In this document: positions 598-50,331 of the stretch, in pieces | Layout of the letters: each line of letters opens with the position of its first letter | Position numbering within the stretch: the stretch's first letter is position 1 | NCBI GenBank assembly: GCA_964609495.1 | Contig: CAZSTA010000003.1 | Coordinates: forward strand, 1-50,743 | Reading direction: 5' to 3' | Length of the DNA stretch: 50,743 nt | Origin: an uncultured bacterium | GTDB lineage: Bacteria; CAZSTA01 | The notes under the pieces: model-generated | Seen by the model: the letters and a program-made list of their open reading frames with translations, nothing else | What the model was told of the DNA's origin: nothing | Databases searched by the model: none | Position numbers and translations under genes: made by a program

Positions 598-636
598 TAT
601 AGAGAATTTTATCGATTATTGCAAGGAGGTAAATCT

Positions 637-1410
637 ATGAGATTTGGGGCTTGTGTCGGCTTAGATAGAGTCAGCGTTTTAGAGAAATACGGTTATGACT
701 TTTTCGAATTAGGGGTTAGTAGCTTGCTTCCCGAGGCTCTTGACTCCGAGTTCATACCGGTCAAGGAGAAGGCGAAATCGTTCAGGATAAAGCCCGAGGC
801 TTATAATGTCTTCATCAAAGGAGAATTAAAATTAACTGGGGAAGAAGTCGATTTTGACAGAGTTATCCGCTATGTCGAAACTGCGGTGAGAAGAGCAGCC
901 GCCTTGGGAGGCAAGATTATCGTCTTTGGAAGCGGAACCGCTCGTCGAGTCCCCGATGGCTTTCCTAAGGAGAAAGCCTATGAACAACTTAAGAAGTTCT
1001 TGAATATGGTAGCTGATAATGCTGGTAAACATAGGATAACTATCGCTATCGAGCCTCTCAATAGGGAGGAGACGAATATCCTAAACTCGGTAGAGGAAGC
1101 GGTATGGCTTGCTAAGGAGGTGAATAGAGCTGAGATCAGGGTCTTAGCTGATATCTATCATATGATCAAGGAGAATGAGAGTTTCGATAGCATAATCAAA
1201 GCTGGCGATTATATAGTTCATATACACCTCTCCGATCCCGATCGCTTCTACCCTGGTCGAGGCGAATACGCTGAGATAAAGGACTTCTTCTCTGCCCTGA
1301 AGAAGATAGGTTACGAGGAGAGGATATCCGCCGAATGTCGCTGGGAGAATTTCGAGGAGGAATGTCCAGGGGTATTAGCTTATATGAAGAGCGTTTGGAG
1401 TAATGCCTAA
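637..1410 (+). CDS. Sugar phosphate isomerase/epimerase (xylose isomerase-like TIM barrel, ketose 3-epimerase-like)
   Basis: IAIEPLNREE, LADIYHM, HIHLSD..R..PG, ISAEC metal-site motifs; GGAGG RBS before ATG 637. Confidence 0.85.
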   Translation: MRFGACVGLDRVSVLEKYGYDFFELGVSSLLPEALDSEFIPVKEKAKSFRIKPEAYNVFIKGELKLTGEEVDFDRVIRYVETAVRRAAALGGKIIVFGSGTARRVPDGFPKEKAYEQLKKFLNMVADNAGKHRITIAIEPLNREETNILNSVEEAVWLAKEVNRAEIRVLADIYHMIKENESFDSIIKAGDYIVHIHLSDPDRFYPGRGEYAEIKDFFSALKKIGYEERISAECRWENFEEECPGVLAYMKSVWSNA

Positions 1411-2408
1411 TCAAGCTCGATAATCTTTCCCCTGTTCTTTATCGAGCGTTGAGCCGCTTCTAAGATCTTCACCACGCGGACTCCATCCTCTCCATCGCTT
1501 CTGGGTTGCTTATTTTCCTTTATACAATCGAGGAAGTGCTGACATTNNNNNNNNNNAGAATCGATTTTAGGGATGTAGATATCCCCAAAACGTAGAGATA
1601 GAGCCTCTCCATAGGAGGTATAATTTAGTCCATCAACTATCCCTTTATCGTATATCTTTACCTTTTCCGTTGGCTCCATATCATCAAAGACAGCCATCTT
1701 ACGACTTCCCACCACAGTCAGTTTTCTGATCTTGTGAGGATCTAACCAACTCACCTGGATATGAGCCATCTTATTATCGGGAAAGTACAGATCTAAAAAG
1801 GCGATATCCTCTATTCCGTCCTGAATGTAGCTTGCTCCCCTCGCAGTTACAAAGGATGGGTTTGGTCTATCTAAAAGATATAGGATCATCGATATATCAT
1901 GAGGGGCAAAACTCCAAAGGGCATTTTCATCCCTCCGCACTCTTCCCAAATTAAGACGTTGCGAATAAATATAGTATATATCTCCGAACTCTCCCTGTTC
2001 TAGATATCCTTTCAGTTTCTCCACCGCAGGATGATACTCCAAGAGATGCCCAACCATTAGAATCTTTCCTTCAGTATTAGCTATATCCCTCAATTCCTCT
2101 GCTTCGGCTAAACTTAGGGTCATAGGCTTCTCCACAAAGGTATGCTTTCCACTTCTCAGGCAATCCTTAGCTATTTTATAGTGAGTATCAGCAGAGGTAG
2201 CAATTACCACGGCCTCTACCTCGCGATCTGTCAGGAAGTTATGGTAATCATCATCAATTTTAGTATAAGGGTATGATCTCTTCACCTTCTCCAAATTATT
2301 CGGCTTCAGATCACAACATCCGTAAAGAAGGGAATCATATAATTGATCTATGTTTCTCACTAAATTAATTCCCCAGTAACCACAACCTATCACCACTGTA
2401 TTAATCAT
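1407..2408 (-). CDS. Gfo/Idh/MocA oxidoreductase, WlbA/WbpB-like nucleotide-sugar dehydrogenase
   Basis: GCGYWG, VEKPM, LMVGH, ENALWSFAPHD, VSWLDPHK motifs; AAGGAG RBS before ATG 2408; spans the N gap at 1547-1556. Confidence 0.85.
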   Translation of the reverse strand: MINTVVIGCGYWGINLVRNIDQLYDSLLYGCCDLKPNNLEKVKRSYPYTKIDDDYHNFLTDREVEAVVIATSADTHYKIAKDCLRSGKHTFVEKPMTLSLAEAEELRDIANTEGKILMVGHLLEYHPAVEKLKGYLEQGEFGDIYYIYSQRLNLGRVRRDENALWSFAPHDISMILYLLDRPNPSFVTARGASYIQDGIEDIAFLDLYFPDNKMAHIQVSWLDPHKIRKLTVVGSRKMAVFDDMEPTEKVKIYDKGIVDGLNYTSYGEALSLRFGDIYIPKIDSXXXXCQHFLDCIKENKQPRSDGEDGVRVVKILEAAQRSIKNRGKIIELD

Positions 2409-2436
2409 AGATTGCTCCTTTTCCCAATTTAGTGGG

Positions 2437-3594
2437 TTAGCCGGCCTGTTTATCCTCATTACCTTTACTATAATCATCATAGTACTTCTTATAGTAATGA
2501 TGGTAGTAATAGTAATAATATCCGGAATCCTTATCTGGACTCATCTTATTTATTATATAGCCCAGAACTTTTCCTCCTATATCCTTTATAGATTTTTCCG
2601 TATATTTAGCGATATTTATGGGGACTTTTCCCGCATCCAAAACTATTATCACTCCATCAACCTCGGTTGCCATAACTGTGGCGTCAGTTACTGACATCAT
2701 CGGAGGAGAATCGAATATTACAAAATCAAGATTCTTCCTCAGAATCTTGATAAGCTCTAACATCGACCGAGATCCTAATAGTTCTGAGGGATTAGGAGGG
2801 GTGGGACCACTAGGAATTAGATATAAATTCTCGATTTCCGTCTTTCTTATGGTTTTCTTCCAATCCAGTCCTTCAGTTAAGATATTGGTCAATCCGGGCT
2901 CTCTAGCGATGCCGAAAACCTTATCTAAGAATGGTTTCCTCAGGTCACTATCTATAAGTATAACCCTATTCCCAGCTCTAGCTATAACTATCCCTAGATT
3001 AGTAACGACTGTTGATTTACCTGCTCCGGGCCCGGGGCTAGTTACCAGGAAGATGTTATGAGAGGAACTCGTTTTGGATAAAATCAAGTTAGTTCGGAGG
3101 ACCCGAAAGGACTCGGCCGCTTGAGAAGTAGGCTGACGATAACTGATCAAGTGGGTTGTGTTCAAGATACTTATATCAGAGAGGACTGGGGTGCTATAAT
3201 TCCCCTTCTGAATTAGTAGATCAAATTCGCGATCTCTTAATATCTCGCTATCACTAGAACTTCCGTCCACTTCCCTATATCTTAATTTTACTGCCTTTCG
3301 CCCTAAATAGAGTATATCACCATCTTCAAGCACTCTCTTATCTATCTTATGACCATTTAGAAAGGTGCCATTAGCACTTCCTAGATCGTAGAATATAAAT
3401 TGTCCCTCTTTGGAGACAACCCGCGCATGATGCCGTGATACAGATCTGTTAGAGATAGTTATATCGTTATCCTTTCCTCTTCCCAAGGTTATAAGATCTC
3501 TATTCAATTCTATCTTTTTTATTTCACCTTCACCCTTTTCCACTATTACCAACTGAGCTTTACGTCCATTCGAGCTGTTTGCCAATTTTATCAC
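2437..3594 (-). CDS. FHA domain fused to a bacterial tyrosine (BY) kinase of the CpsD/CapB type
   Basis: FHA: LGR, SVSRHHA, DLGSANGTFLNG. Kinase: ESFRVLR (Ex2Rx2R), Walker A GPGAGKS, A' LIDSDLRKP, Walker B IFDSPP, C-terminal Tyr cluster YYYYYYHHYYKKYY. Confidence 0.9.
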   Translation of the reverse strand: MIKLANSSNGRKAQLVIVEKGEGEIKKIELNRDLITLGRGKDNDITISNRSVSRHHARVVSKEGQFIFYDLGSANGTFLNGHKIDKRVLEDGDILYLGRKAVKLRYREVDGSSSDSEILRDREFDLLIQKGNYSTPVLSDISILNTTHLISYRQPTSQAAESFRVLRTNLILSKTSSSHNIFLVTSPGPGAGKSTVVTNLGIVIARAGNRVILIDSDLRKPFLDKVFGIAREPGLTNILTEGLDWKKTIRKTEIENLYLIPSGPTPPNPSELLGSRSMLELIKILRKNLDFVIFDSPPMMSVTDATVMATEVDGVIIVLDAGKVPINIAKYTEKSIKDIGGKVLGYIINKMSPDKDSGYYYYYYHHYYKKYYDDYSKGNEDKQAG

Positions 3595-5456
3595 CTCATC
3601 ATCTTCCGGCCAAAGACTATTATGAACAGAGCCATCATAAAGGCTCCGATGAAAGCTTCTATAGCCGCGAAGGCTCTAGTTAGGGGAAAGGCAGGGACGA
3701 TGTCACCATAACCGACTGTGGTAAACGTCACTATGCTGAAGTAGATACATTGGGCGAAAATCCTCAAATATTTCCCGAGGCTCAAGGAGGGATCGAATTG
3801 TAGCAACATATCTCCAGATTTCAATCCAGAGAAGAAGTAGAGGATCGAGCATATAAATACTAAGAGCAAGGAGGAAAGAATAACTTTCCAGGGCTTTTCT
3901 CCATAACCACAGAGGAGATCTACCAGAGAATACCAAAGACCGATTGAAGACCATTCTCTAGCTTGCTTCCTCTTCATCGTCATCTCTCGGTAAAAGAACT
4001 CCCCTCCCTCTGAATACATTCCGGCATTGCCATAATTTTCCTTTATCTCCCGGTAAACTCTTTCTGCATCTATATATGCTCCATCCTTCTCCTCTCCTAC
4101 TATATATTTATCTCCCCAATTCACACTTTCTAGATCAGCTCTCTCTAAATTGGCGTCCCTTAGATAAGCCTCACATAAATTGGCAGACTTAAGGTTTGCC
4201 TCATATAGATCGGCTTCCTCTAAATGAGCCCCTGCTAGATCAGCTCTCGTTAACTGAGCCCCTCGAAGATCTGCTTCGGCTAGTATAGTAGATTTAAGTT
4301 GAGCTTCATTTAATATTGCCTCGGTTAAGGTAGCTCTTCTCAGTTGAGCCTCATCCAAAATTGCCTTGCTTAATACAGTTTCTCTAAGGAGTGCCTCGTT
4401 TAATTGAGCTTTCGTCAAATCAGCGGATTCAAGTCGAGCTTTATCTAGGATAGCACCAACTAGATTCGCTTCTTGTAGCTGAGCCGAAGCTAGAAGTGCT
4501 TCTTTTAAGTTCGCCTTCTGAAGATGGGCTCGGCTCAGAAGAGCCGAGGTGAAATCGGCTCTTTCTATCTGAGCATCAGTAAGGTAAGCACCGGTAAGAG
4601 TGGCTTCACTAAAATTGGCTCTCTGGAGTTTCGCCTCTTCCAGGTGGGCAGATGTTAGATCGGCTTTAGTTAGGTTAGCCCCTCCTAGACGAGCTCCTAA
4701 CAGAGTAGCTTCTTTAAAGCTCGCCTCGGTCAAATTAGCTCCTCTAAGGTCTGCCTCGGCTAAAGTGGCATAGGTGAAGTTAGCTCCCTCAAAGCGAGTG
4801 CCAGCTAGGAAAGCCCCGGTAAGAGTTGCTCCAGTTAAATCTACCGCTCTCAGGATCGCTCCCGTAAGGATCGCTCCTTGCAATTGGGCTCCCCTAAGGT
4901 CCGCCTCTACAAAAGATGCTCGCTCCAGATGAGCGCCTTCGAGGGAAGCTCTAGTCAGAGAAGCCCCCTTAAGATAGGCAGACTTTAGAATAGCTTCGGT
5001 AAGAATGCTTCCATCTAACCGAGCTTCCTCTAAATTCGCTCCGGTAAGATCTGCTCCTCTTAGATTAGCCCCTTCGAGATCAGCTCCTCTAAGACTAACT
5101 CTCTTCAGATCGACTCCCTCGAGAAGACTGCCCTTGAGATCAGCACCATCTAAGTTAGCTTTGCTTAATTCGCATCCCTTTAGTATAGCCTCCCCTAAGT
5201 TCGCTTTCTGAAGATGAGCATCTTTGAGATCTAGTCCCTGTAAATCCATACCTTTTAGGAAAGCTCTCTCTAAACTCTTATTCTCCCTAACTCTCCCCTC
5301 CACCAATCTTTTTATTATCTCTCCTATCCTCTTCTCCGTCTTATCCATCTCGGGATCATGGAGAATACACCAACCAGAAGCTCTAGGAGGTATATCGCAA
5401 TGTTCTCCCTTATGTTCACCCCAATATTCCCACTCGTAGTTACAAAGATTCTGCAT
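3591..5456 (-). CDS. Pentapeptide-repeat protein with C-terminal two-TM K+-channel-like pore domain (Ion_trans_2)
   Basis: About 390 aa of A(D/N)Lxx repeats, then CGYGE..W, TM helices and the filter TTVGYGD; N-terminal C..C..CxxH cluster. Confidence 0.9.
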   Translation of the reverse strand: MQNLCNYEWEYWGEHKGEHCDIPPRASGWCILHDPEMDKTEKRIGEIIKRLVEGRVRENKSLERAFLKGMDLQGLDLKDAHLQKANLGEAILKGCELSKANLDGADLKGSLLEGVDLKRVSLRGADLEGANLRGADLTGANLEEARLDGSILTEAILKSAYLKGASLTRASLEGAHLERASFVEADLRGAQLQGAILTGAILRAVDLTGATLTGAFLAGTRFEGANFTYATLAEADLRGANLTEASFKEATLLGARLGGANLTKADLTSAHLEEAKLQRANFSEATLTGAYLTDAQIERADFTSALLSRAHLQKANLKEALLASAQLQEANLVGAILDKARLESADLTKAQLNEALLRETVLSKAILDEAQLRRATLTEAILNEAQLKSTILAEADLRGAQLTRADLAGAHLEEADLYEANLKSANLCEAYLRDANLERADLESVNWGDKYIVGEEKDGAYIDAERVYREIKENYGNAGMYSEGGEFFYREMTMKRKQAREWSSIGLWYSLVDLLCGYGEKPWKVILSSLLLVFICSILYFFSGLKSGDMLLQFDPSLSLGKYLRIFAQCIYFSIVTFTTVGYGDIVPAFPLTRAFAAIEAFIGAFMMALFIIVFGRKMMR

Positions 5457-10834: not shown

Positions 10835-11731
10835 TTAAGACTTTATAAAAAATGTTATATATTCATGCTTAAATATATAAAATCCTCCAGCTAAAGCTCT
10901 ATATCTCCATAAATGTAATTGATTCCTTTTCCCTCTATTTTCCTGAATATCCTTAATACATATACTCTTTAGCTTATAACCGCAATTCAATATAACTTCC
11001 ATCGTTCTGAAGCCTAAGGGGATCCATTCACCATTTTCGTATTTGTCACCTATAACTAAAACTAAATAACGATCTCTCTCTAAAAAATCAGATACATTTT
11101 TAACGATCTTTTTAAATTTATTATAGAAATCTTCTTCGCTTTCTGCATTAGAGAGATCCTCCTTCAGATCACTAAATTTGATAATATCATAGTAAGGGGG
11201 ATGCATTATAAGCAATTGGGCTTTTTCCTGCCCCATCTCAGCTAGAGCTTCTCCGATCTTATCCTTAACTTCGATAGATCCGCTATCTCCTACGATAACT
11301 TTAGTTTTAATATTGTAATTGTTAGTCTCTTGAGAGATCCTTTCTTCAGCAATTTTAGCTACTTGGGGATAGATCTCGACCCCTATGCCATTTCTTCCCA
11401 ACCTTTTACACTCGATAAGAGTAGTTCCCGATCCCAAAAAAGTATCGAGCACCGTTTCTCCTCTTTTCGTGAATCTTAGGAGAGATTGAGTAGCGATCTG
11501 AGGAATAAAATTTCCCCAATAATCACCCTCATGCGCTCCGCTTTTATCACGCCCAGGAAATAACCACAGACTATCAGTTACTATCTCCGGGTAATCCTTC
11601 CATCTTTTAAGATCTATATCGTTAAGATAAGATGTTCTAGGTTTATAATCAGGCTCGTTATTCTTCTCTAAGATTTTAAAAGGTTCTTCTTCGGGGAAGA
11701 GTTCACCCTGTGATTCAGGCATAATCATCAC
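10835..11731 (-). CDS. Site-specific DNA amino-methyltransferase (m4C/m6A; motif I precedes motif IV)
   Basis: VLDTFLGSGTT, then IMHPPY; GNFIPQI. Confidence 0.85.
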   Translation of the reverse strand: MMIMPESQGELFPEEEPFKILEKNNEPDYKPRTSYLNDIDLKRWKDYPEIVTDSLWLFPGRDKSGAHEGDYWGNFIPQIATQSLLRFTKRGETVLDTFLGSGTTLIECKRLGRNGIGVEIYPQVAKIAEERISQETNNYNIKTKVIVGDSGSIEVKDKIGEALAEMGQEKAQLLIMHPPYYDIIKFSDLKEDLSNAESEEDFYNKFKKIVKNVSDFLERDRYLVLVIGDKYENGEWIPLGFRTMEVILNCGYKLKSICIKDIQENRGKRNQLHLWRYRALAGGFYIFKHEYITFFIKS

Positions 11732-11734
11732 CCT

Positions 11735-12544
11735 TCAGATTTCTAACTCTTCATAAGTTACTATTTCGATCTGGGAAACAGTCTTGTCAAAAAGCGATGG
11801 CTGAAGTTCTTCGTCTAATCTCTTGGCAGCCGATTTGCAATATTCCCTAGAGTTATCAATTAAAATAAAATTACGTCCTAACTTTTTTGCTACTAATCCA
11901 ACTGTTCCAGAGCCAGCGAACATATCTAAGACAGTATTTCCTTTATAGGAGTAAAATTTAATCAACCGATAAGGTAATTCCTCCGGAAATGGTGCTGGAT
12001 GACCAATCTTTTTTCTGCTTTCGGGAGCAAATACCCAGACACTGCGAGTATATTTCATAAATTCTTCTTTATCCAAGTCACAATTTTCAGGACTTCCTTC
12101 AAGTTTCCACTGGCCCTTGGAAAAGACAATAATGTATTCGTGGCGAGGAACGATATGGGGGTTGCTACAACTATTCCAACTACCCCAAGCGCAATGCTTC
12201 GCGGCACTGTGTTTATTCCAAATAAGTGTCCCTCTATAGAGCATTTTCAAATCAACACATTGTTGAATAAAGGCACTAAAAGCAGGATAAGTAATATTTT
12301 GCCTTTTATTTTCTCCCATATTTATACATAATCTTCCACCCTTTACCAAAACTCTCTTTGTTTCATTCCATACTTGTCCCATCCAATCGAGGTATTCGTT
12401 GTAGTCCATAAGGTCATTATGATCGCTGTAAGGTTTATTCAGATTATAAGGTGGAGATGTGATAACAAGATGCACTGACTCACCAGGTAACAGCTTTAAT
12501 GTATCCAGCGCATCACCACAGACTATTTTATTGAGTGGTAACAT
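11735..12544 (-). CDS. Beta-class DNA methyltransferase (probably m4C)
   Basis: ITSPPY, HPAPFP, VLDMFAGSGT. Confidence 0.9.
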   Translation of the reverse strand: MLPLNKIVCGDALDTLKLLPGESVHLVITSPPYNLNKPYSDHNDLMDYNEYLDWMGQVWNETKRVLVKGGRLCINMGENKRQNITYPAFSAFIQQCVDLKMLYRGTLIWNKHSAAKHCAWGSWNSCSNPHIVPRHEYIIVFSKGQWKLEGSPENCDLDKEEFMKYTRSVWVFAPESRKKIGHPAPFPEELPYRLIKFYSYKGNTVLDMFAGSGTVGLVAKKLGRNFILIDNSREYCKSAAKRLDEELQPSLFDKTVSQIEIVTYEELEI

Positions 12545-12589
12545 AGTGATTACTCCTGATAGTCTAAAGGCTACAGGTTAAGCTTAAAA

Positions 12590-13039
12590 TTATCCACCTT
12601 TGGAATCTACTTTATCCTCGGACTTCCTAAAATACCCCCACGAAGTTTTTAGAAGATTCTTCTCCTCGATATATCTTTGAGCTTTCTTCCTGAATTGGGT
12701 GAATAACTCCCTATCTCCCCAAAGCAAGATTCCATCCAATAACGCATCTAGGATAAGACCTCTATAAAGTAGAGAATCGACCTCCCCCTGGGTAAAGGCA
12801 ACTATATCTACCCAAACAGGTTTATCCTTATTTATCAAGGCTAACCTCTCCCAATAATCATAAGGAAGTTCTGAGGCAACTAAGAATAGGTCGTAATCAC
12901 TATATTTGCGGGGTTCACCTCTGGCTTGAGAGCCGAAGAGGAGAACGAACTTGATATCTAGTTTTAGAGATAAGCTATCTATAAATTCTCTAATATAGTC
13001 CGGGAGCTCTGGACTATCTTCTTCGCACATTTTACACAC
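12590..13039 (-). CDS. MNT minimal nucleotidyltransferase (antitoxin of a HEPN-MNT pair)
   Basis: LFGSQARGEPRKYSDYDL (GSx10DxD); overlaps the HEPN gene. Confidence 0.88.
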   Translation of the reverse strand: MCKMCEEDSPELPDYIREFIDSLSLKLDIKFVLLFGSQARGEPRKYSDYDLFLVASELPYDYWERLALINKDKPVWVDIVAFTQGEVDSLLYRGLILDALLDGILLWGDRELFTQFRKKAQRYIEEKNLLKTSWGYFRKSEDKVDSKGG

Positions 13040-13395
13040 TCTCGAGCCTTAATTTCGTTATAGAACTCGTATGGTTTCCCGAAGGGAAAACTATTGGGGT
13101 AACGGGAGGGGATGTAATGTTGATCCAATTCCTGCGCTTCAGCTAATAGTGGTAAAAGCTCATTGATAGAGTTTAAGTTATAATTAGGGTCTCCTTTGAT
13201 AAGAATAGTTACACTATGGATTCGCTGAATATCTTCATTTATCGCTATATGCAGAGCCTTAACAGCTTTTTCTCCTGCTTGTTGAGAGATGAAGCAAGCC
13301 CAGTTATAATTTCCTATTCTAGCGTTATCCTCCGCGACCTTGAGATCAAATTCGGCCTCCTCTAGCCATCTGAGAGCTTCATCCCGCGGATTCAT
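12979..13395 (-). CDS. HEPN domain protein
   Basis: WLEEAEFDL, YNWACFISQQAGEKAVKA, YIPSRYP. Confidence 0.88.
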   Translation of the reverse strand: MNPRDEALRWLEEAEFDLKVAEDNARIGNYNWACFISQQAGEKAVKALHIAINEDIQRIHSVTILIKGDPNYNLNSINELLPLLAEAQELDQHYIPSRYPNSFPFGKPYEFYNEIKARECVKCAKKIVQSSRTILENL

Positions 13396-19635: not shown

Positions 19636-20649
19636 TCAATAATTCAACTCAAGCCTCTTGCCCTCTTTGGATGCTCTATAGGCAGATAAGATGGTCTGGA
19701 GGGTTAGTTTTGCCTCCTCGGGTTTAACGATCGGTTCTTTATCCTGTAGAATACAATCCACAAAGTGATTCACACCTCGTCCCACAGAATATTCCCACCA
19801 AACCGGATTGTGTTCGACTTCTAGGTATTGAGGAGAACCCTTATCCTTTACTATAAAGAGGGGCTTCTCCGCTTCATTGCAGATGTGGATAGAACCGTTT
19901 GGGCCATATATGTCCTTCCTCTCACTCCATACATCAGAGGTTGCGGCATAAGTTACTACCACTTCAGCCATAAAATTATCGGGAAACTCCAGAGTGACGG
20001 TGGAGCAATCATCAGCTTTATTCTCAGCAGTTACGACTAACCTCTTCATAGTAGCCGTTACTGCGTTGGGTAGGCCGAAGAAGTAGTGCATCAGATCGAT
20101 GAAGTGCGTTCCAGTATCCGCCATAGCTCCTCCCCCAGCCTTATCCCAGGTTCCCTTCCAGCTATTTGGATCATCCATTCGCCACATCTCATTTCCGATA
20201 CAGACTGCTAGGCAGAAGAAGGGTTTGCCTATCTCTCCGTTGTTCAATAATTCCTTTGCCCTCTGGTGAGCAGGGAGGAAGCGCTGATTTAGAGCTACGA
20301 AGAAGCGTCTCCCCTTCTTCTCCGCGGTGGTTATCATATCATCAGCCTCTTCAATAGTCATAGAGATCGGCTTCTCTAAGATAACATCTTTGCCAGCTTC
20401 AAAGGCTTCTAAGGTGACTTGGTGATGGAGGAAGTGAGGGAGACATATATCAACTACTTGAATGGATTTATCCTCTAGGAGATAGTGATAATCGGTTGTG
20501 ATCTGGGAAACTTCATATTTATCAGCGAGAGCCTTAGCCGCTTTCTCGCTTAGGTCAGCTATGCCGGCTATCTGAACATCTTGACGCTTCAAATAGGCAT
20601 TTACATGGACTCTGCTCACTCCTCCAGCCCCGATGACGCCGATCTTCAT
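19636..20649 (-). CDS. Gfo/Idh/MocA family sugar dehydrogenase
   Basis: GAGGVS, LEKPIS, GGGAMADTGTHFID. Confidence 0.88.
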   Translation of the reverse strand: MKIGVIGAGGVSRVHVNAYLKRQDVQIAGIADLSEKAAKALADKYEVSQITTDYHYLLEDKSIQVVDICLPHFLHHQVTLEAFEAGKDVILEKPISMTIEEADDMITTAEKKGRRFFVALNQRFLPAHQRAKELLNNGEIGKPFFCLAVCIGNEMWRMDDPNSWKGTWDKAGGGAMADTGTHFIDLMHYFFGLPNAVTATMKRLVVTAENKADDCSTVTLEFPDNFMAEVVVTYAATSDVWSERKDIYGPNGSIHICNEAEKPLFIVKDKGSPQYLEVEHNPVWWEYSVGRGVNHFVDCILQDKEPIVKPEEAKLTLQTILSAYRASKEGKRLELNY

Positions 20650-34014: not shown

Positions 34015-34809
34015 TCAAACTTCTCTCCAGACTTCTCTGACGTATCTCATCCCCTCTACAATGCCCTCTCTCCCTTTTGTGCCACCTGCTTCCAGCGAAA
34101 TCCACCCGTCGAAGTTAGCTGACTTCAATATCTTGAATATCTCGGCAAAGGGAACGCAGCCTTCCCCAACAACTTGATGTTCGAGCTGCTCATCTCTATC
34201 ACTAGCGTGGACGTGGATGACTCTTTCCTTGACGATCTCCGCAAGTTCGACAGCACTATCTCCCGACTCCATGGGATTTGATGTGTCCAAGTTGACCTTC
34301 AACCGATTATCGTTGACAAGGGCCAGAATCTTTGTAAAATCTTCCACACTCGTTCCGATTTGAGGATGATCTTCTAGCGCAAGCATCACCCCTTTTTCTT
34401 CTGCATAGTCGAGACTCCTCTTCAGGCAATCCGCCACATTGCCTAGGGCTTCCTCCTGGTTACAATCCTGAGGCCAACTACCCGCCGTTACTCTTACAAT
34501 GTTGGTGCGAAGGATAACAGCCGCATCGACATCTCCTCTTAGGGATTCAATCTGCTTGAGTCGCTCTTTCTCCGAAGGAGATGCAAGTTGTCCGTAACTG
34601 GTAAACATTGAGATTTCTAGCCCAGCCCGGTTTATCTCATCAGCGAGCTTCTCTAGAAAGCTATGTTCGGTAGTTTTCAAGTAGGGACGATACACCTCGA
34701 TGCCATCGAGACCTATATCCGCTGCCATTTTTATCCACTCACTAAGAGACATCTTCCCCGTGCGAATGATATCGTCAAAGAAGCAAATGGGTATACAACT
34801 TACTTTCAC
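34015..34809 (-). CDS. Sugar phosphate isomerase/epimerase (cassette-like)
   Basis: LALEDH, NLDTSN, HVHASD, ISLE. Confidence 0.85.
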   Translation of the reverse strand: MKVSCIPICFFDDIIRTGKMSLSEWIKMAADIGLDGIEVYRPYLKTTEHSFLEKLADEINRAGLEISMFTSYGQLASPSEKERLKQIESLRGDVDAAVILRTNIVRVTAGSWPQDCNQEEALGNVADCLKRSLDYAEEKGVMLALEDHPQIGTSVEDFTKILALVNDNRLKVNLDTSNPMESGDSAVELAEIVKERVIHVHASDRDEQLEHQVVGEGCVPFAEIFKILKSANFDGWISLEAGGTKGREGIVEGMRYVREVWREV

Positions 34810-41679: not shown

Positions 41680-42789
41680 CTACCTCTTCATACTCTCAGC
41701 TAAGATCAACTCTAGTTCTCCTCGATTGCTCTCTGGATCATAGTAACAATCCAAGATCCTATCATGAGGTAGAGAACTGATCCTCTCGTTCATTATATTC
41801 AGAACCTTGAAGTTGATCTCGATGGCTTTCTGCACCGGCATCCTCTCAGGATTAATATCTATCCCGAAGTATCCAGTATAGCCGATCATCTTTAGAACGT
41901 AGAGGGTGGCTTCAGCCTGTTGCCATTCCACTACCCCTGTATTCAAGTCCTGATCATAATTGCCTAAGGGTTGGCTGTTCCAGTGAGTATGCGCTAATCT
42001 TCCCTCCCTGGCTACTCTGCTGAAGGCGTAAGGGGTATCCTCAAATCCCATCCTTACATGTCCAATCTCTGGATTGAGCCCTACTAGACGATGTCCCTCC
42101 TCCAGCCACTTCTTGTTTTCTGGATTAGTCAATCGCGCCTCTACATCCTTCGCCATGATTATCCCATCAGCAGTAGTCCGATAGATATTATTGGGAGCAG
42201 GCTCATAAGGTTTTGGCTCTATGGCAACGCGAACTCCTGGCACCTCATCCATAGCCTCGGCTAAACCGGCCTCGAAGCGATCCCACATCTCATAGTATAG
42301 CGTCCCCATAGAGTAGGTATAACCATCGATCCCGGGCCAGACAACCGCCATATCCGCTTCCGCCTCTTTGACCAGTTTGAGAGCTTTGACCGTCCTATCG
42401 AAAGCTTTCTGGCGATACTTCTCTATCGGGTTGGAGAGGGAGCCAAATTCAAACTCCTTGTCGAAGAAGATGAAGGGGGGAATCAATACTAAACGAATCC
42501 CAGTCTCCTCCTCCAACTTCTTATAAAGAGGTAGATTCTCCTCATTCACCTCGTTTGGATAGTGAGCCTCGATCCCTTTAACCCCATATTTAGTGAACTC
42601 CGCGGCGATCTCCAGCCTCTCAGCGATCGTCATCTCCTTCACATAGCGATCGTGAAATCTTCCTCCTGCGGGAGAGAAGTACCAAACCCCAACTGAGAGC
42701 TTAAGATCTAGATTGAAGGTATTAAGTTGCTCAAGTAATTCCTCCTTTATCCGTCTTTTCTGTTGATAGCGCAGATCAACCAGTGCCAT
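41680..42789 (-). CDS. Xylose/L-rhamnose isomerase-family TIM barrel
   Basis: VWYF..GGRF, WPGIDG, IEPKPYEP, NPEIGH, HWN..YDQDL. Confidence 0.82.
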   Translation of the reverse strand: MALVDLRYQQKRRIKEELLEQLNTFNLDLKLSVGVWYFSPAGGRFHDRYVKEMTIAERLEIAAEFTKYGVKGIEAHYPNEVNEENLPLYKKLEEETGIRLVLIPPFIFFDKEFEFGSLSNPIEKYRQKAFDRTVKALKLVKEAEADMAVVWPGIDGYTYSMGTLYYEMWDRFEAGLAEAMDEVPGVRVAIEPKPYEPAPNNIYRTTADGIIMAKDVEARLTNPENKKWLEEGHRLVGLNPEIGHVRMGFEDTPYAFSRVAREGRLAHTHWNSQPLGNYDQDLNTGVVEWQQAEATLYVLKMIGYTGYFGIDINPERMPVQKAIEINFKVLNIMNERISSLPHDRILDCYYDPESNRGELELILAESMKR

Positions 42790-46901: not shown

Positions 46902-47207
46902 AAGAGCGGATGCGTTAGGCACCCGCTCTTTATTATATATCTCAATCTGGCTCCAGTCTTATCTATCTAATCACCGCGAGAGTCTTGATCTCCTCTATAG
47001 TCTTCCCATCACCAGTGGCTCTTATCCGATAGATGTAAATTCCGTCTGCCACTTCCTCACCATCCTCATCTAATCCATCCCAAGCTACTTCATTATATCC
47101 CATCTCTCCGGCTATCTCATCTAATACTCTCACTAACTCTCCCGCAGTAGTGTAGATCTCTATCCTGACTTCTGCTTCCATACATAAGCTGAAGGTGAAG
47201 ACGGTCC
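46902..47207. repeat. Duplicated terminator plus C-terminal domain coding region (copy 1; copy 2 at 50438-50743)
   Basis: 306-bp direct repeat, about 21 mismatches by hand alignment; includes the GAGCGG.TGC..GCACCCGCTC hairpin. Confidence 0.9.
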
Positions 47208-50200
47208 GATTCGTCATCGGATTAGGAGCATTCATAACATTGTGTAATCCCAGGATCGCTTCTACGGTGAAGGTGGTGGTCATCTCGGTCTTGTTACTAA
47301 CCTTGTCCTTGACCTCTATCTTCACCGTGTATTCCCCGCTCTTCAGATTCCCCTTGAGGGTGTAGGAGATCTCACCTGTATTCTCATCATATCCGATCTT
47401 AGTCCAATCCACAACTATGTCGTTCATCCCCTCGGAGGAGATCGTTATCTTCAAGCTCTCCCTATCTATCCCACTCGTCTGATCGGTAACCTTAGCGGTT
47501 ATCTTCCATTCCGCTCGATCGCACTCGGTCTCTATGAATTTATCCTCCACCGCTAAGTCGCTCATCTGAGGAGGGGTGTTATCCACTATCACCGTTACCT
47601 TATCCGTAGCGGTTCTCCCCTCGGTATCCTTGGCGGTAATGCGGACGGTGTAAGTGCCATCGGGGAGAGAGGAGGTATCCCAATTCCCCAAGAGATCATC
47701 GGTTACTGCCTGAGTGGAAGTATTAATAAGCGTCCAGCTACTCGGATCTTCTCCTTCTCCATACTCTAGGATGTAGTTATCAAAGATCTCACTGAAGGCT
47801 GTGCCTATTACATCAACTTCTCCTTTGACGATCTGCATATCAGTAGGGGAGGAGATGTCCGCTATTGGAGGTGGAGCAGGAGGCTCAGGCAAGATGACAT
47901 GGATAAGTTGTGTCCCATCGGTCCAACCATAATCGGGAGCCTCGGCGGCCAGCATCGTCGCCGTTCCCAACTCAAAGCCTTTGAAGTGGAAAGTCACGCT
48001 GTTAGATCCCGCAGGAATGACTACCGAAGTGATGGGAACAAAGGGAGTGTGCGTCAGTGAGAACTGCCCGATCAAGTTGAGGGAGGTAAGGTTGATGGTG
48101 GTGTCCACCGCTACACTGACGGGATTGCCATTTATGTCCTGAAGTTGGATAGTTATCACATTACTGGGGAGACCCACATAGACCAGCCTTATCGGGGTGA
48201 TAAAGACTATCTCAGTTGGGAGGAAAACAACATCCGTCGTAACTGCGGTATCCATCGGACAGGGGGTTACCGCGGAGACGGTCGCGGTTCCTGCTATTGT
48301 GCTGGATAGAAGAGAGGTAGCACTTCCTCCAACAGTATAAGCAGTAGCAGGATCGATAGTTCCCAAGTTGGTAGAGAAATCGATAGGAGTCCAATCAGGA
48401 GCTTTATATATTCCTCCTGTCATCGTAGCGGTAATGGTAGAGGTGCCACCAGCGCCGACAGAGGTAGGATTGGCGGTGAGGGACATCTGTAGCCAGGGAT
48501 CATAATCTACGTTATCGCTGACCGCATCGCCAACTCCTCCCGGATTGGTTGTAGGATGATAAGGACCGCTGTTATCTCCCCACCAATTTCCTTCGGCATC
48601 AAGGAGAACACCGGTGGTGTTGTTGACGCCATAAGCGATATTACCACAGATAACGTTCTCATTAGCGGTGATATTAGTGGAAGTGGGATCGAGGTAAATA
48701 CCACCACTCACACCACTATACCCATTCTCAACGATGAAGTTCCCCTCAATTGGGATATTGTCTGAGGCTTCAAGGTAGATCCCATCCTCATAATTCTCTA
48801 TGGTGTAGTTGTTATAGATGGTGGTGTTATGTATATCAATTAGACGGATACCCCAGCCCCAGGCAGACATAAAAAGTATGTTGGCACCTGCGGCTTGCTT
48901 AGGAGCATACTTCTCCTTGATCCCCTTGATATCGAGTTCGAGTTCGGCTCTGCTCTTCTTGGTTCTACTGCGAGTTATATCTTCATGCGGGAGTTTCCTC
49001 TCTCTTCTAGGAGCTTTGTCCTCCTTGCTCTTTCTGGGCTTATCATCCTTCTTCTTGTCACCCTTAGAGATCGTCTTGCTCTTCTCGCTCATTTTGGAGC
49101 TATCATCTTTAGGGATGGATATCTCGCTCTTCCTCCCACCTCTGACCCTAGAAGCAGAGCGTCTCCTCTCGATCCTCTCCTCGATATCAGAGATACTGAG
49201 TCCCCTGGCAGAACTGCCTATGGTAAGATCCGATCCGCTCTTCAGATGAAGGCAACACATTTCATTATCAAAGCTCCAGTTCCCTGAGATGACGTTATAT
49301 TGCCCCGCCCAATCGGAGTAGATTCCCTCCCAATTCCAAGCAGCAGTAGTATTGCCAACGAACTGGTTCGAATCTGATGAGTCGGAGAAGCCAGTAAAAA
49401 GGATCCCAGCAAAATAATTGTCATAACACTCATTAGCAAAAATAAGGTTGTTATCAGAATCTTGCAGATAGATTCCACAACCATCTATAGCACCGACCCA
49501 TCCATTGTCGTGGATGTCATTACCCACTATAAAGCTATCCGTTATATAGACGAAGTAGATACCATCAAAGATCCCGTTCCCTTCGATCTCATTACCTTCT
49601 ATAAGGAGATCCGTTCCATTATAGGCATAGATACCCCACAAGTCGTTATCATAGATGTAGTTGTAAGAGACAGTGTTAGAAACTCCCGCATCCCAAAGAC
49701 CTATGCCGTCAAAATTACCATATATCTCGTTATAACCGATAAAGTTGTAATCCGAGGTATCCAAACCATCTTCTGTAAGCCAGATCCCAAACCAACCATT
49801 ATCATAGATGTAGTTTCCTCCGTTTATACCATCACCGATAATACTACCATTCACGCCACTCAACTCTATTCCATCATCGTTGTTGTCGTGAATATCGCAA
49901 TTATAGACCTCAATCGCCATATTCCCTGAGGAGGCACTGACATGGATACCATCGGTAGCCAAGCTTCTTCCATCGATCTCGATCTCATTGAAGACTACGG
50001 TATAGCTATTCCCATCAGTAGCGCTGAGATCGAAGCAGTTACCTCCAGTGCCTAAGCCATCTACAACTACTAGTGTCCCTGAGGTAGACGATTGGAAGGT
50101 CAGGGACTTATTCGTTACAGTTACATTCTCACTATAGGGATTACCAGCGGGATCGATTTCGATAATATCCCCACTGACAGTTGAAAGAGCATTGATCGCC

Positions 50201-50331
50201 GCTTGAATTGTTGCGTAATCGTAAGTAGGTGGGCCACCTGGCCCCACAGTCCACGTAGCGGCATCTGCTGAGGCTGCTAAAGTTAGCAGAAAAAGAATGA
50301 CCAGAACTACCCGAAAAGATGTACTTCTCAT
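46963..50331 (-). CDS. Large secreted protein: right-handed beta-helix (NosD/PbH1), Ig-like (Big) domains, C-terminal FlgD-Ig-like domain
   Basis: Signal peptide, TIQAAIN, repeated I..N..GI coils, NWWG..GP, WDTSSLPDGTY, NAPNP...IYTTAGELVR...WDG...GIYIYRI. Confidence 0.85.
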   Translation of the reverse strand: MRSTSFRVVLVILFLLTLAASADAATWTVGPGGPPTYDYATIQAAINALSTVSGDIIEIDPAGNPYSENVTVTNKSLTFQSSTSGTLVVVDGLGTGGNCFDLSATDGNSYTVVFNEIEIDGRSLATDGIHVSASSGNMAIEVYNCDIHDNNDDGIELSGVNGSIIGDGINGGNYIYDNGWFGIWLTEDGLDTSDYNFIGYNEIYGNFDGIGLWDAGVSNTVSYNYIYDNDLWGIYAYNGTDLLIEGNEIEGNGIFDGIYFVYITDSFIVGNDIHDNGWVGAIDGCGIYLQDSDNNLIFANECYDNYFAGILFTGFSDSSDSNQFVGNTTAAWNWEGIYSDWAGQYNVISGNWSFDNEMCCLHLKSGSDLTIGSSARGLSISDIEERIERRRSASRVRGGRKSEISIPKDDSSKMSEKSKTISKGDKKKDDKPRKSKEDKAPRRERKLPHEDITRSRTKKSRAELELDIKGIKEKYAPKQAAGANILFMSAWGWGIRLIDIHNTTIYNNYTIENYEDGIYLEASDNIPIEGNFIVENGYSGVSGGIYLDPTSTNITANENVICGNIAYGVNNTTGVLLDAEGNWWGDNSGPYHPTTNPGGVGDAVSDNVDYDPWLQMSLTANPTSVGAGGTSTITATMTGGIYKAPDWTPIDFSTNLGTIDPATAYTVGGSATSLLSSTIAGTATVSAVTPCPMDTAVTTDVVFLPTEIVFITPIRLVYVGLPSNVITIQLQDINGNPVSVAVDTTINLTSLNLIGQFSLTHTPFVPITSVVIPAGSNSVTFHFKGFELGTATMLAAEAPDYGWTDGTQLIHVILPEPPAPPPIADISSPTDMQIVKGEVDVIGTAFSEIFDNYILEYGEGEDPSSWTLINTSTQAVTDDLLGNWDTSSLPDGTYTVRITAKDTEGRTATDKVTVIVDNTPPQMSDLAVEDKFIETECDRAEWKITAKVTDQTSGIDRESLKITISSEGMNDIVVDWTKIGYDENTGEISYTLKGNLKSGEYTVKIEVKDKVSNKTEMTTTFTVEAILGLHNVMNAPNPMTNRTVFTFSLCMEAEVRIEIYTTAGELVRVLDEIAGEMGYNEVAWDGLDEDGEEVADGIYIYRIRATGDGKTIEEIKTLAVIR

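Follow-up and report, generated by a model that had tools for sequence, protein, structure and literature searches.

The window analysed here, a stretch of 50,743 nucleotides (nt) of contig CAZSTA010000003.1 from an uncultured bacterium (assembly GCA_964609495.1), carries at 2437..3594 on the minus strand a gene in which an FHA domain is joined in one frame to a tyrosine kinase of the bacterial kind (BY-kinase). Judged from its sequence, this is a genuine fusion whose two halves are each complete, and the protein is soluble. As to its role, we lean, by a modest degree of confidence, to the view that the protein, as a free-standing kinase, is the partner of a split export machine made of a polysaccharide co-polymerase (PCP) of the PCP-2 type and an outer-membrane polysaccharide export (OPX) protein, both encoded elsewhere in the genome, and that the FHA domain adds a phosphothreonine (pThr) input from Hanks-type kinases. 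This reading is favoured because the genome holds a PCP-2/OPX pair that lacks a kinase and has no BY-kinase other than the FHA fusions. That pThr drives the activation or the recruitment of the kinase is what we infer from the domain content.

The FHA and kinase halves of the protein

The reading frame is open for 385 codons from GTG 3594. The true start is probably TTG 3585, which would give a protein of 382 amino acids (aa), because the stop of the upstream gene overlaps GTG 3594, a Shine-Dalgarno-like GAGGTGA lies 5 nt ahead of TTG 3585, and the public gene call (P0004, 382 aa) begins there. The features of the gene, all on the minus strand, are as follows.

2437..3594, minus strand: FHA-BY-kinase gene, 385 open codons from GTG 3594, stop codon 2437-2439
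3268..3561, minus strand: FHA domain, residues 12-109 (Pfam; Rv1747/GarA alignment; confident beta-sandwich)
3154..3267, minus strand: linker, residues 110-147, about 38 residues, low confidence in AlphaFold2
2527..3153, minus strand: BY-kinase catalytic domain, residues 148-356 (TIGR01007; 4jlv; Foldseek)
3094-3114, minus strand: ExxRxxR, residues 161-167
3010-3033, minus strand: Walker A, residues 188-195
2938-2964, minus strand: Walker A', residues 211-219
2701-2727, minus strand: Walker B, residues 290-298
2440..2526, minus strand: C-terminal tyrosine cluster tail, residues 357-385, 11 Tyr

The FHA half matched Pfam FHA (PF00498) over residues 35-98 at 73.3 bits (cut-off 20.7, E 2.2e-20) and has GR at residues 38-39, SRHH at 53-56 and NGT at 75-77. 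Its nearest solved structures are Rv1747 (E 3.6e-12) and GarA/OdhI, the whole range being E 3.6e-12 to 9e-11, and in the alignment R39, S53, H56 and N75 match the same residues in Rv1747 and GarA. The Arg of GR, the Ser and His of SxxH and the Asn of NG are the residues that we take to form the pThr pocket of FHA domains, and on this alignment the pocket of the window protein is canonical for pThr.

BY-kinases are recognised by a Walker A' motif of the form hhhhDxDxR, a Walker B motif of the form hhhhDxxP, the oligomerisation motif ExxRxxR and a C-terminal tyrosine cluster. The kinase half of the window protein matched the NCBIfam family TIGR01007 ('polysaccharide biosynthesis tyrosine autokinase') at 186.9 bits against a cut-off of 108.05, over profile positions 1-203 of 204. 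Residues 145-363 matched the CapA1B1 chimera 4jlv at E 3.2e-50, the Walker A, A' and B motifs aligned with the same motifs of the CapA/CapB chimeras, and 11 of the last 30 residues are Tyr. An AlphaFold2 model of the protein had a mean predicted local distance difference test score (pLDDT) of 83.3 and a predicted template modelling score (pTM) of 0.65, and in it both the FHA beta-sandwich and the kinase were confident, the FHA fold having nine strands with pLDDT mostly 89-97. When the modelled kinase was compared by Foldseek, it superposed on 4jlv with a template modelling score of 0.86 (normalised to the target) and a root-mean-square deviation of 1.9 over 207 columns, and it was also placed on the Wzc octamer 3la6. 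A transmembrane segment was not found, the highest 19-residue Kyte-Doolittle mean being 1.50 and lying inside the kinase core, and Pfam gave no Wzz or GNVR match; the protein is thus not a PCP-2a, in which co-polymerase and kinase would be one chain. By every sequence and fold criterion tested the protein is a member of the BY-kinase family, and its N-terminal part a member of the FHA family. The initial annotation had described a complete FHA domain with GR, SRxH and NGT, a complete BY-kinase, a cluster of about 10 Tyr and a protein without a transmembrane segment, and all of this stood.

Between the two halves, linker residues 112-122 and 130-144 fell below 50 pLDDT and the helix at 119-129 had a block mean (10 residues) of 54, so that the model predicts a linker that is probably flexible.

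Other copies of the fusion and the reality of the junction

A second FHA-kinase is present in the same genome on contig C44. It has 362 aa, is 47-49% identical to the window protein, and is colinear with it from the FHA domain to the Tyr cluster. The identity between the two is 43% in the FHA domain (42/98), 25% in the linker (7/28), 54% in the kinase (112/209) and 76% in the tail (13/17). A third copy, P0358 (364 aa), is 91% identical to the C44 paralog and lies on an independent metagenome contig of 3771 nt (L039), where it has the same flanking genes as the paralog. Upstream of the C44 kinase by 15 nt is a gene for an exported protein of 276 aa, a lipoprotein with a CarboxypepD_reg-like domain, and this pair of genes is kept in L039.

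L023:14358-16292, plus strand: C44 paralog and its upstream gene
L039:447-2387, plus strand: counterpart of this pair on the independent contig

The junction between the FHA domain and the kinase is real, as judged from these copies, because the C44 paralog, the independent L039 copy and the FHA-FHA-kinase clusters described below share the same architecture in one frame. Direct support for the junction of the window copy is weaker than the support from the other copies. One Logan contig of 1513 nt from run X1 bridges 2766-3800, and X1 may be the source sample, whereas the contig pieces from runs X2, X3 and X4 leave 3117-3236 uncovered. Among 24 runs listed for the stretch none was of RNA, and the habitats from which the stretch is recorded are salt marsh and sediment. 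The initial annotation had allowed for a misassembly here, and coverage answers this only in part. That assembly or gene calling produced the fusion from two distinct genes, one for FHA and one for a BY-kinase, can nevertheless be put aside as very improbable: the only piece that bridges the junction comes from a run that is possibly the source sample and three other runs skip 3117-3236, but the frame continues across the linker without a stop, and the fusion is found again in the C44 paralog, in the 91% identical L039 copy and in four clusters of kinases with two FHA domains, one of which has a Brocadiia-labelled member.

Rarity of the architecture

When the window protein was searched by word index against 5.8 billion clusters, FHA was found in 2 of the 120 listed matches, and these were the window protein itself and its paralog. 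An exhaustive HMMER search of 1.84 billion representatives gave 146,685 matches at E <= 0.001, of which the best 150 were listed. From these 150, the 21 in which two or more stretches had matched or the N-terminus was extended were scanned with Pfam and the other 129 were left out. FHA was present in two of the 21, namely the 555-aa P0125, a kinase with two FHA domains, and the 878-aa P0199, whose order is Wzz-GNVR-kinase-FHA; among the other 19 there were 13 with Wzz and/or GNVR, which are PCP proteins or fragments of them, and 6 with P-loop families only. A profile built from four fusions found FHA together with a P-loop domain in 6 of 120 listed matches (P0005, P0004, P0125, P0359, P0360 and P0361), and after these six the score dropped from 377 to 282 bits. 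When the FHA domain and linker were searched alone, only 1 of 89 matches had a P-loop domain and that one was the window's own protein.

Four protein clusters thus have FHA-FHA-kinase in one frame: P0125, P0359 (MBL7223279.1), P0360 and P0361. The only taxon label among the four is that of a member of the P0359 cluster, which is named 'polysaccharide biosynthesis tyrosine autokinase [Candidatus Brocadiia bacterium]'. These proteins are like the window protein in that FHA is fused to a BY-kinase and in that the FHA domain next to the kinase has GR, SRH and NGT; they differ in that the FHA domain is doubled and the linker runs to about 110 residues. P0199 (KPK65281.1, from 'Planctomycetes bacterium SM23_32') differs in that its FHA domain is at the C-terminus of a full Wzc. 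The proteins with two FHA domains and the Wzc-FHA protein are 38-43% identical to the window protein.

Other searches added no further copies. A metagenome scan with the window protein gave 542 pattern matches and a scan of genome contigs with P0360 gave 215, none of them confirmed in either scan, and the ESM Atlas returned only plain CapB/CpsD clusters at 0.81, which is below the level for more than a lead. In the 40 nearest genomes, which are related at domain level only, no match spanned both domains among the matches listed, 91 more being outside the list; the genome is the sole member of its phylum among about 200,000 species compared. When 401 genomes of the phylum of the Brocadiia metagenome-assembled genome (MAG) were searched with the kinase with two FHA domains, three candidates per genome being scored, one of the 401 matched at E <= 1e-70 and it was the query's own genome. 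By these counts the FHA-BY-kinase architecture is very rare.

In a tree of FHA domains, those of the kinases with two FHA domains split from the FHA domains of this genome (support 89/93), which suggests that FHA-kinase fusions arose independently; the window (C3) and C44 FHA domains fell in an open polytomy. The recurrence of the fusion in other formats, in proteins of which two have Brocadiia or Planctomycetes labels, suggests selection over accident. A full-text literature search, whose coverage excludes subscription journals, found no description of an FHA-BY-kinase fusion, and in the accessible text of PMC11032199 and PMC2877116 the FHA and BY-kinase terms occur separately. The initial annotation had taken the architecture to be uncharacterised. 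This holds for the literature searched, but the window protein is not unique, since kinases with two FHA domains and a Wzc-FHA protein exist. What is new is the combination of FHA and BY-kinase; the fusions are already in public databases under generic names, and the two whose source is named are annotated as a plain autokinase or as a capsular exopolysaccharide synthesis family protein.

A co-polymerase and an export protein without a kinase

The initial annotation had stated that there was no Wzz/CpsC/CapA-type gene nearby. This is correct for the 50.7-kb window, where a Pfam scan of 45 open reading frames (ORFs) gave no Wzz, GNVR or Poly_export family. It is not correct for the genome, which is rated 99.45% complete and in which a search for Wzz gave two matches only, on contigs C20 and C213. 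The C20 protein is a PCP-2 of 504 aa with Wzz and GNVR and without a kinase domain, and its gene adjoins one for an OPX protein of 1819 aa, which has one Poly_export domain and 19 SLBB_2 stretches and is far longer than usual Wza-like proteins. The C213 protein is a Wzz of 265 aa whose gene lies ahead of sugar-nucleotide genes.

L022:7095-12554, minus strand: giant OPX gene on C20, Poly_export and 19 SLBB_2

Seven matches to TIGR01007 were found in the genome, of which two exceed the cut-off and both are FHA fusions. The next best match, on contig C79, was considered as a possible pseudokinase and rejected, as it is a MinD with MinC upstream. By this profile the two FHA-kinases are the only BY-kinases of the genome. 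What is more, residues 1-471 of the C20 PCP align with residues 7-483 of P0258, in which PCP and kinase are fused (E 3e-58), including the segment after the second transmembrane segment, and the window kinase aligns with residues 514-724 of the same protein (E 6e-51). Because they align to consecutive parts of P0258, the PCP and the window kinase would be two halves of one known machine. An activator remnant within the linker of the window protein was also considered and rejected: BLASTP alignments to two fused or GNVR-bearing homologs start only at residues 147-148, the window protein had no significant BLASTP match to the C20 PCP, and the linker was of low confidence in AlphaFold2. The initial annotation had itself named dependence on a distant co-polymerase as a circumstance that would count against its proposal; with the C20 PCP-2 present and no other BY-kinase in the genome, that is now the more likely situation.

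A kinase with two FHA domains in an exopolysaccharide locus

A parallel case is provided by the Brocadiia MAG. At L040:512-9034 on the plus strand the gene for the kinase with two FHA domains stands directly ahead of a NusG-like gene, one for the exosortase EpsH (216.9 bits), DUF3485 and a gene for a TPR protein of 1535 aa; by its gene content this is an exopolysaccharide/exosortase locus. On another contig of the same MAG (L090), a Wzz gene without a kinase domain is followed by an AAA_22 ATPase gene, and a second BY-kinase-like gene is present. Since the Brocadiia FHA-kinase sits in exopolysaccharide/exosortase biology, this analogy argues that the FHA fusion modifies the polysaccharide role of the kinase and does not replace it.

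Proposed mechanism and points against it

A probable explanation for these observations is that a cytoplasmic BY-kinase with all its catalytic parts, free-standing as in CapB, CpsD and PtkA, has acquired an N-terminal FHA domain on a tether of about 38 residues. The kinase would dock on the cytoplasmic tail of the C20 PCP-2, beside the giant OPX protein, its kinase domains would assemble into eight-fold rings, and cycling of Tyr-cluster autophosphorylation would control the polymerisation and export of polysaccharide. Eight-fold ring assembly with Tyr-cluster cycling is the known scheme for BY-kinases. Part of this scheme is given in the accessible text of PMC4166321. By analogy with the topology of Wzc, the tethered FHA domains would be on the N-terminal side of the kinase, which faces the membrane. 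The FHA domain would serve as a second input, in which pThr made by a Hanks-type kinase sets where and when the kinase engages, and candidate sites for the pThr ligand are the export machine, the co-encoded channel described below or another membrane protein, a substrate, and the protein's own linker.

FHA domains of GarA/OdhI and Rv1747 are readers of the pThr marks of Hanks-type kinases. The genome has Hanks-type kinases that, by their family matches, could supply pThr to the FHA domain: the counts of matches were 16 for Pkinase, 19 for FHA, 3 for PP2C_2, 1 for a low-molecular-weight phosphatase and 3 for initiating sugar transferases. None of the 16 Pkinase matches is on the window's contig. 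A functional link between the two kinase types has a precedent in Bacillus subtilis, where, according to the accessible text of PMC4166321, PrkC phosphorylates PtkA at S223 beside the Tyr cluster.

Several observations weigh against a kinase that partners the C20 PCP. Neither FHA-kinase gene is near a PCP, glycosyltransferase or other polysaccharide gene, and the window copy comes after rnc and a cluster for fatty-acid synthesis and apparently shares an operon with the gene for a K+-channel protein. The tail of the C20 PCP holds only one Thr, whose context is unremarkable. In the paralog and in the L039 copy the pocket Arg of the FHA domain is replaced by Ser (GS) and the Asn by Arg, so that one of the two copies in the genome has probably given up canonical pThr binding. 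Likeness to the XrtA type of exopolysaccharide system counts on both sides: PCP, kinase and OPX protein all match families of that type, in which PCP and kinase are made as two proteins, but not all of them to a full degree. The OPX protein matched the XrtA/PEP-CTERM export family TIGR03027 at 883.5 bits, above its cut-off, but the other two components scored under the curated cut-offs of the corresponding families: the best NCBIfam match of the C20 PCP was TIGR03007 ('XrtA system polysaccharide chain length determinant') at 247.3 bits against 278.85, over 2-492 of 498, and the window kinase reached 135.6 bits against 230.65 with TIGR03018 ('XrtA-associated tyrosine autokinase'). An exosortase match is absent from this genome, rated 99.45% complete, and because of this the machine is not a member of the XrtA/PEP-CTERM system.

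Alternative explanations

The alternative that survives best, which we regard as unlikely but well worth stating, is that the FHA domain took over the role of the co-polymerase. The kinase would then be a soluble, diffusing enzyme whose activation or localisation would require docking on pThr written by Hanks-type kinases, binding to pThr-proteins would concentrate or activate it, and a two-tier cascade from Ser/Thr to Tyr phosphorylation would act on substrates outside polysaccharide synthesis. A soluble kinase that pThr recruits or activates was the proposal of the initial annotation. The gene positions speak for this: neither paralog has a PCP or exopolysaccharide gene nearby, the window copy is in an apparent operon with the K+-channel/pentapeptide gene, and the C44 paralog follows the lipoprotein gene in an order that is kept in L039. 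The FHA pocket of the window copy is canonical, and the accessible text of PMC4166321 describes BY-kinases with many substrates other than those of polysaccharide synthesis, PtkA being an example. On the other side, the PCP-2 and OPX proteins without a kinase would have no other BY-kinase to serve them, the linker has neither similarity to nor a confident structure like that of an in-built activator segment, and the Brocadiia relative sits in an exosortase/exopolysaccharide locus.

A GarA/OdhI-like intramolecular switch is improbable to a greater degree as the whole explanation, although it is compatible with the kinase being the partner of the PCP-2 and does not exclude it. Here a Hanks-type kinase would phosphorylate a Thr of the linker and the FHA domain would fold back on it, thereby blocking or permitting assembly of the kinase ring. 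The FHA domains of GarA and OdhI bind to their own chains, and many FHA domains prefer pT-x-x-[I/L]. GarA and OdhI are among the nearest solved relatives of the window FHA domain, Thr135, Thr146 and Thr147 of the predicted flexible linker each have Leu or Ile at +3, and a linker of this kind would suit such a switch. However, little of the linker is conserved (of 28 positions aligned with the paralog, 7 are identical), the linker of the paralog has no Thr in such a context, and the FHA domain was docked in no model (pTM 0.65).

Slightly more doubtful again is a selector of primed substrates, in which the FHA domain would bring proteins marked with pThr to the kinase and Tyr phosphorylation would be limited to targets that carry phosphate on Thr beforehand. 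In its favour are the flexible tether that joins the reader to the catalytic domain and the many Hanks-kinase and FHA matches of the genome. Against it, there is no known candidate substrate and nothing specific is present in the neighbourhood; those substrates of BY-kinases that have been characterised are not known to be recruited in this way.

Neighbouring genes in the window

The gene upstream of the FHA-kinase encodes a protein of 621 aa with an N-terminal stretch rich in Cys and His, about 400 residues of pentapeptide repeats and a C-terminal pore whose filter is TVGYGD. The stop of this gene precedes the likely FHA-kinase start by 5 nt and the two genes are in the same apparent operon. 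Ahead of it the row of genes is plsX-fabH ... fabK-fabD-fabG-acpP-fabF-rnc.

3591..5456, minus strand: pentapeptide-repeat and two-transmembrane K+-channel pore gene (Pfam Pentapeptide 338 bits, Ion_trans_2 51.5 bits)
1407..2480, minus strand: downstream GFO/IDH/MocA oxidoreductase gene, best NCBIfam match UDP-GlcNAc 3-dehydrogenase, below cut-off

The fatty-acid synthesis row is interrupted at 10835-13395 (minus strand) by two N6_N4 DNA methylase genes next to each other and a HEPN/nucleotidyltransferase pair, which is typical of a toxin-antitoxin module; this block has fabK on one side and, on the other, a B12-binding radical SAM gene that is followed by fabH and plsX. The downstream oxidoreductase gene contains a run of 10 N at 1547-1556, which appears as XXXX in its translation, and another gene of its family is at 19636-20649 (minus strand). 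Genes for xylose-isomerase-like TIM barrels are at 619-1410 (plus strand), 34015-34809 (minus strand) and 41680-42789 (minus strand). As TIM barrel and GFO/IDH/MocA genes are also present on C20 and C44, they appear to be an expanded family pair in this genome, and their proximity to both FHA-kinase genes is probably chance. A gene at 46963-50331 (minus strand) encodes a protein of 1122 aa with right-handed beta-helix/NosD repeats, Ig-like domains and an FlgD_ig-like C-terminal domain, which is probably a secreted surface protein.

Comparison with known systems and significance

The closest counterparts are CapB/CapA of Staphylococcus aureus, CpsD/CpsC and PtkA/TkmA, in which, as in the window protein, the kinase is a stand-alone cytoplasmic P-loop tyrosine autokinase with all motifs and a Tyr cluster; the CapA/CapB chimeras are 36-40% identical to it over residues 145-363. 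As in these systems, the co-polymerase without a kinase domain is encoded by a separate gene. Unlike them, the window protein adds an N-terminal FHA domain and linker, its gene is not beside that of the co-polymerase, and the candidate PCP is a long diderm-type Wzz and GNVR protein of 504 aa beside an OPX protein and not a short CapA-like protein. The Wzc and Etk proteins of Escherichia coli have a homologous kinase domain (E about 1e-34 to Wzc chains), and the C20 PCP matches residues 343-474 of Wzc, but the window protein has no transmembrane segment, Wzz or GNVR, and PCP and kinase are here separate genes on different contigs. GarA/OdhI and Rv1747 of Actinobacteria are the closest solved relatives of the FHA half, with identical pocket motifs, whereas what those domains control are metabolic enzymes or an ABC transporter and not a tyrosine kinase. 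A precedent for a PCP-2 without a kinase that has a separate cytoplasmic BY-kinase-like partner is EcpK/EpsV of Myxococcus xanthus, as described in the accessible text of PMC12004946. EcpK is a pseudokinase in which the catalytic residues and the Tyr residues are missing; in the window protein all of them are present, and FHA is added. The PrkC-PtkA pair, in the accessible text of PMC4166321, is alike in being a functional coupling of a Hanks-type kinase and a BY-kinase, but the coupling there is trans-phosphorylation of a Ser that lies beside the Tyr cluster, while in the window protein it would be a hard-wired pThr reader.

Bacteria have two main systems of O-phosphorylation, the BY-kinases and the Hanks-type kinases. 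The only cross-talk between them demonstrated to date is trans-phosphorylation, known from a few model organisms, as with PrkC and PtkA (PMC4166321). The fusion hints at a direct link from Ser/Thr to Tyr phosphorylation, and this is tempered by the co-polymerase elsewhere in the genome and by the organism being uncultured and alone in its phylum among the genomes compared. Should the less likely view be true that the FHA domain replaced the co-polymerase, the protein would be a hard-wired Ser/Thr-to-Tyr cascade, possibly acting at the co-encoded K+-channel/pentapeptide protein, and the at least three formats in which the fusion occurs (this lineage, the kinases with two FHA domains and Wzc-FHA) would mark a general signalling route that has gone unrecognised. 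The fusion of FHA and a complete BY-kinase may be read as a Rosetta stone, in that both phosphorylation systems meet on one protein, and the FHA-kinase would be a simple construct for asking if Thr phosphorylation gates the assembly of a tyrosine autokinase and thereby the export of polysaccharide.

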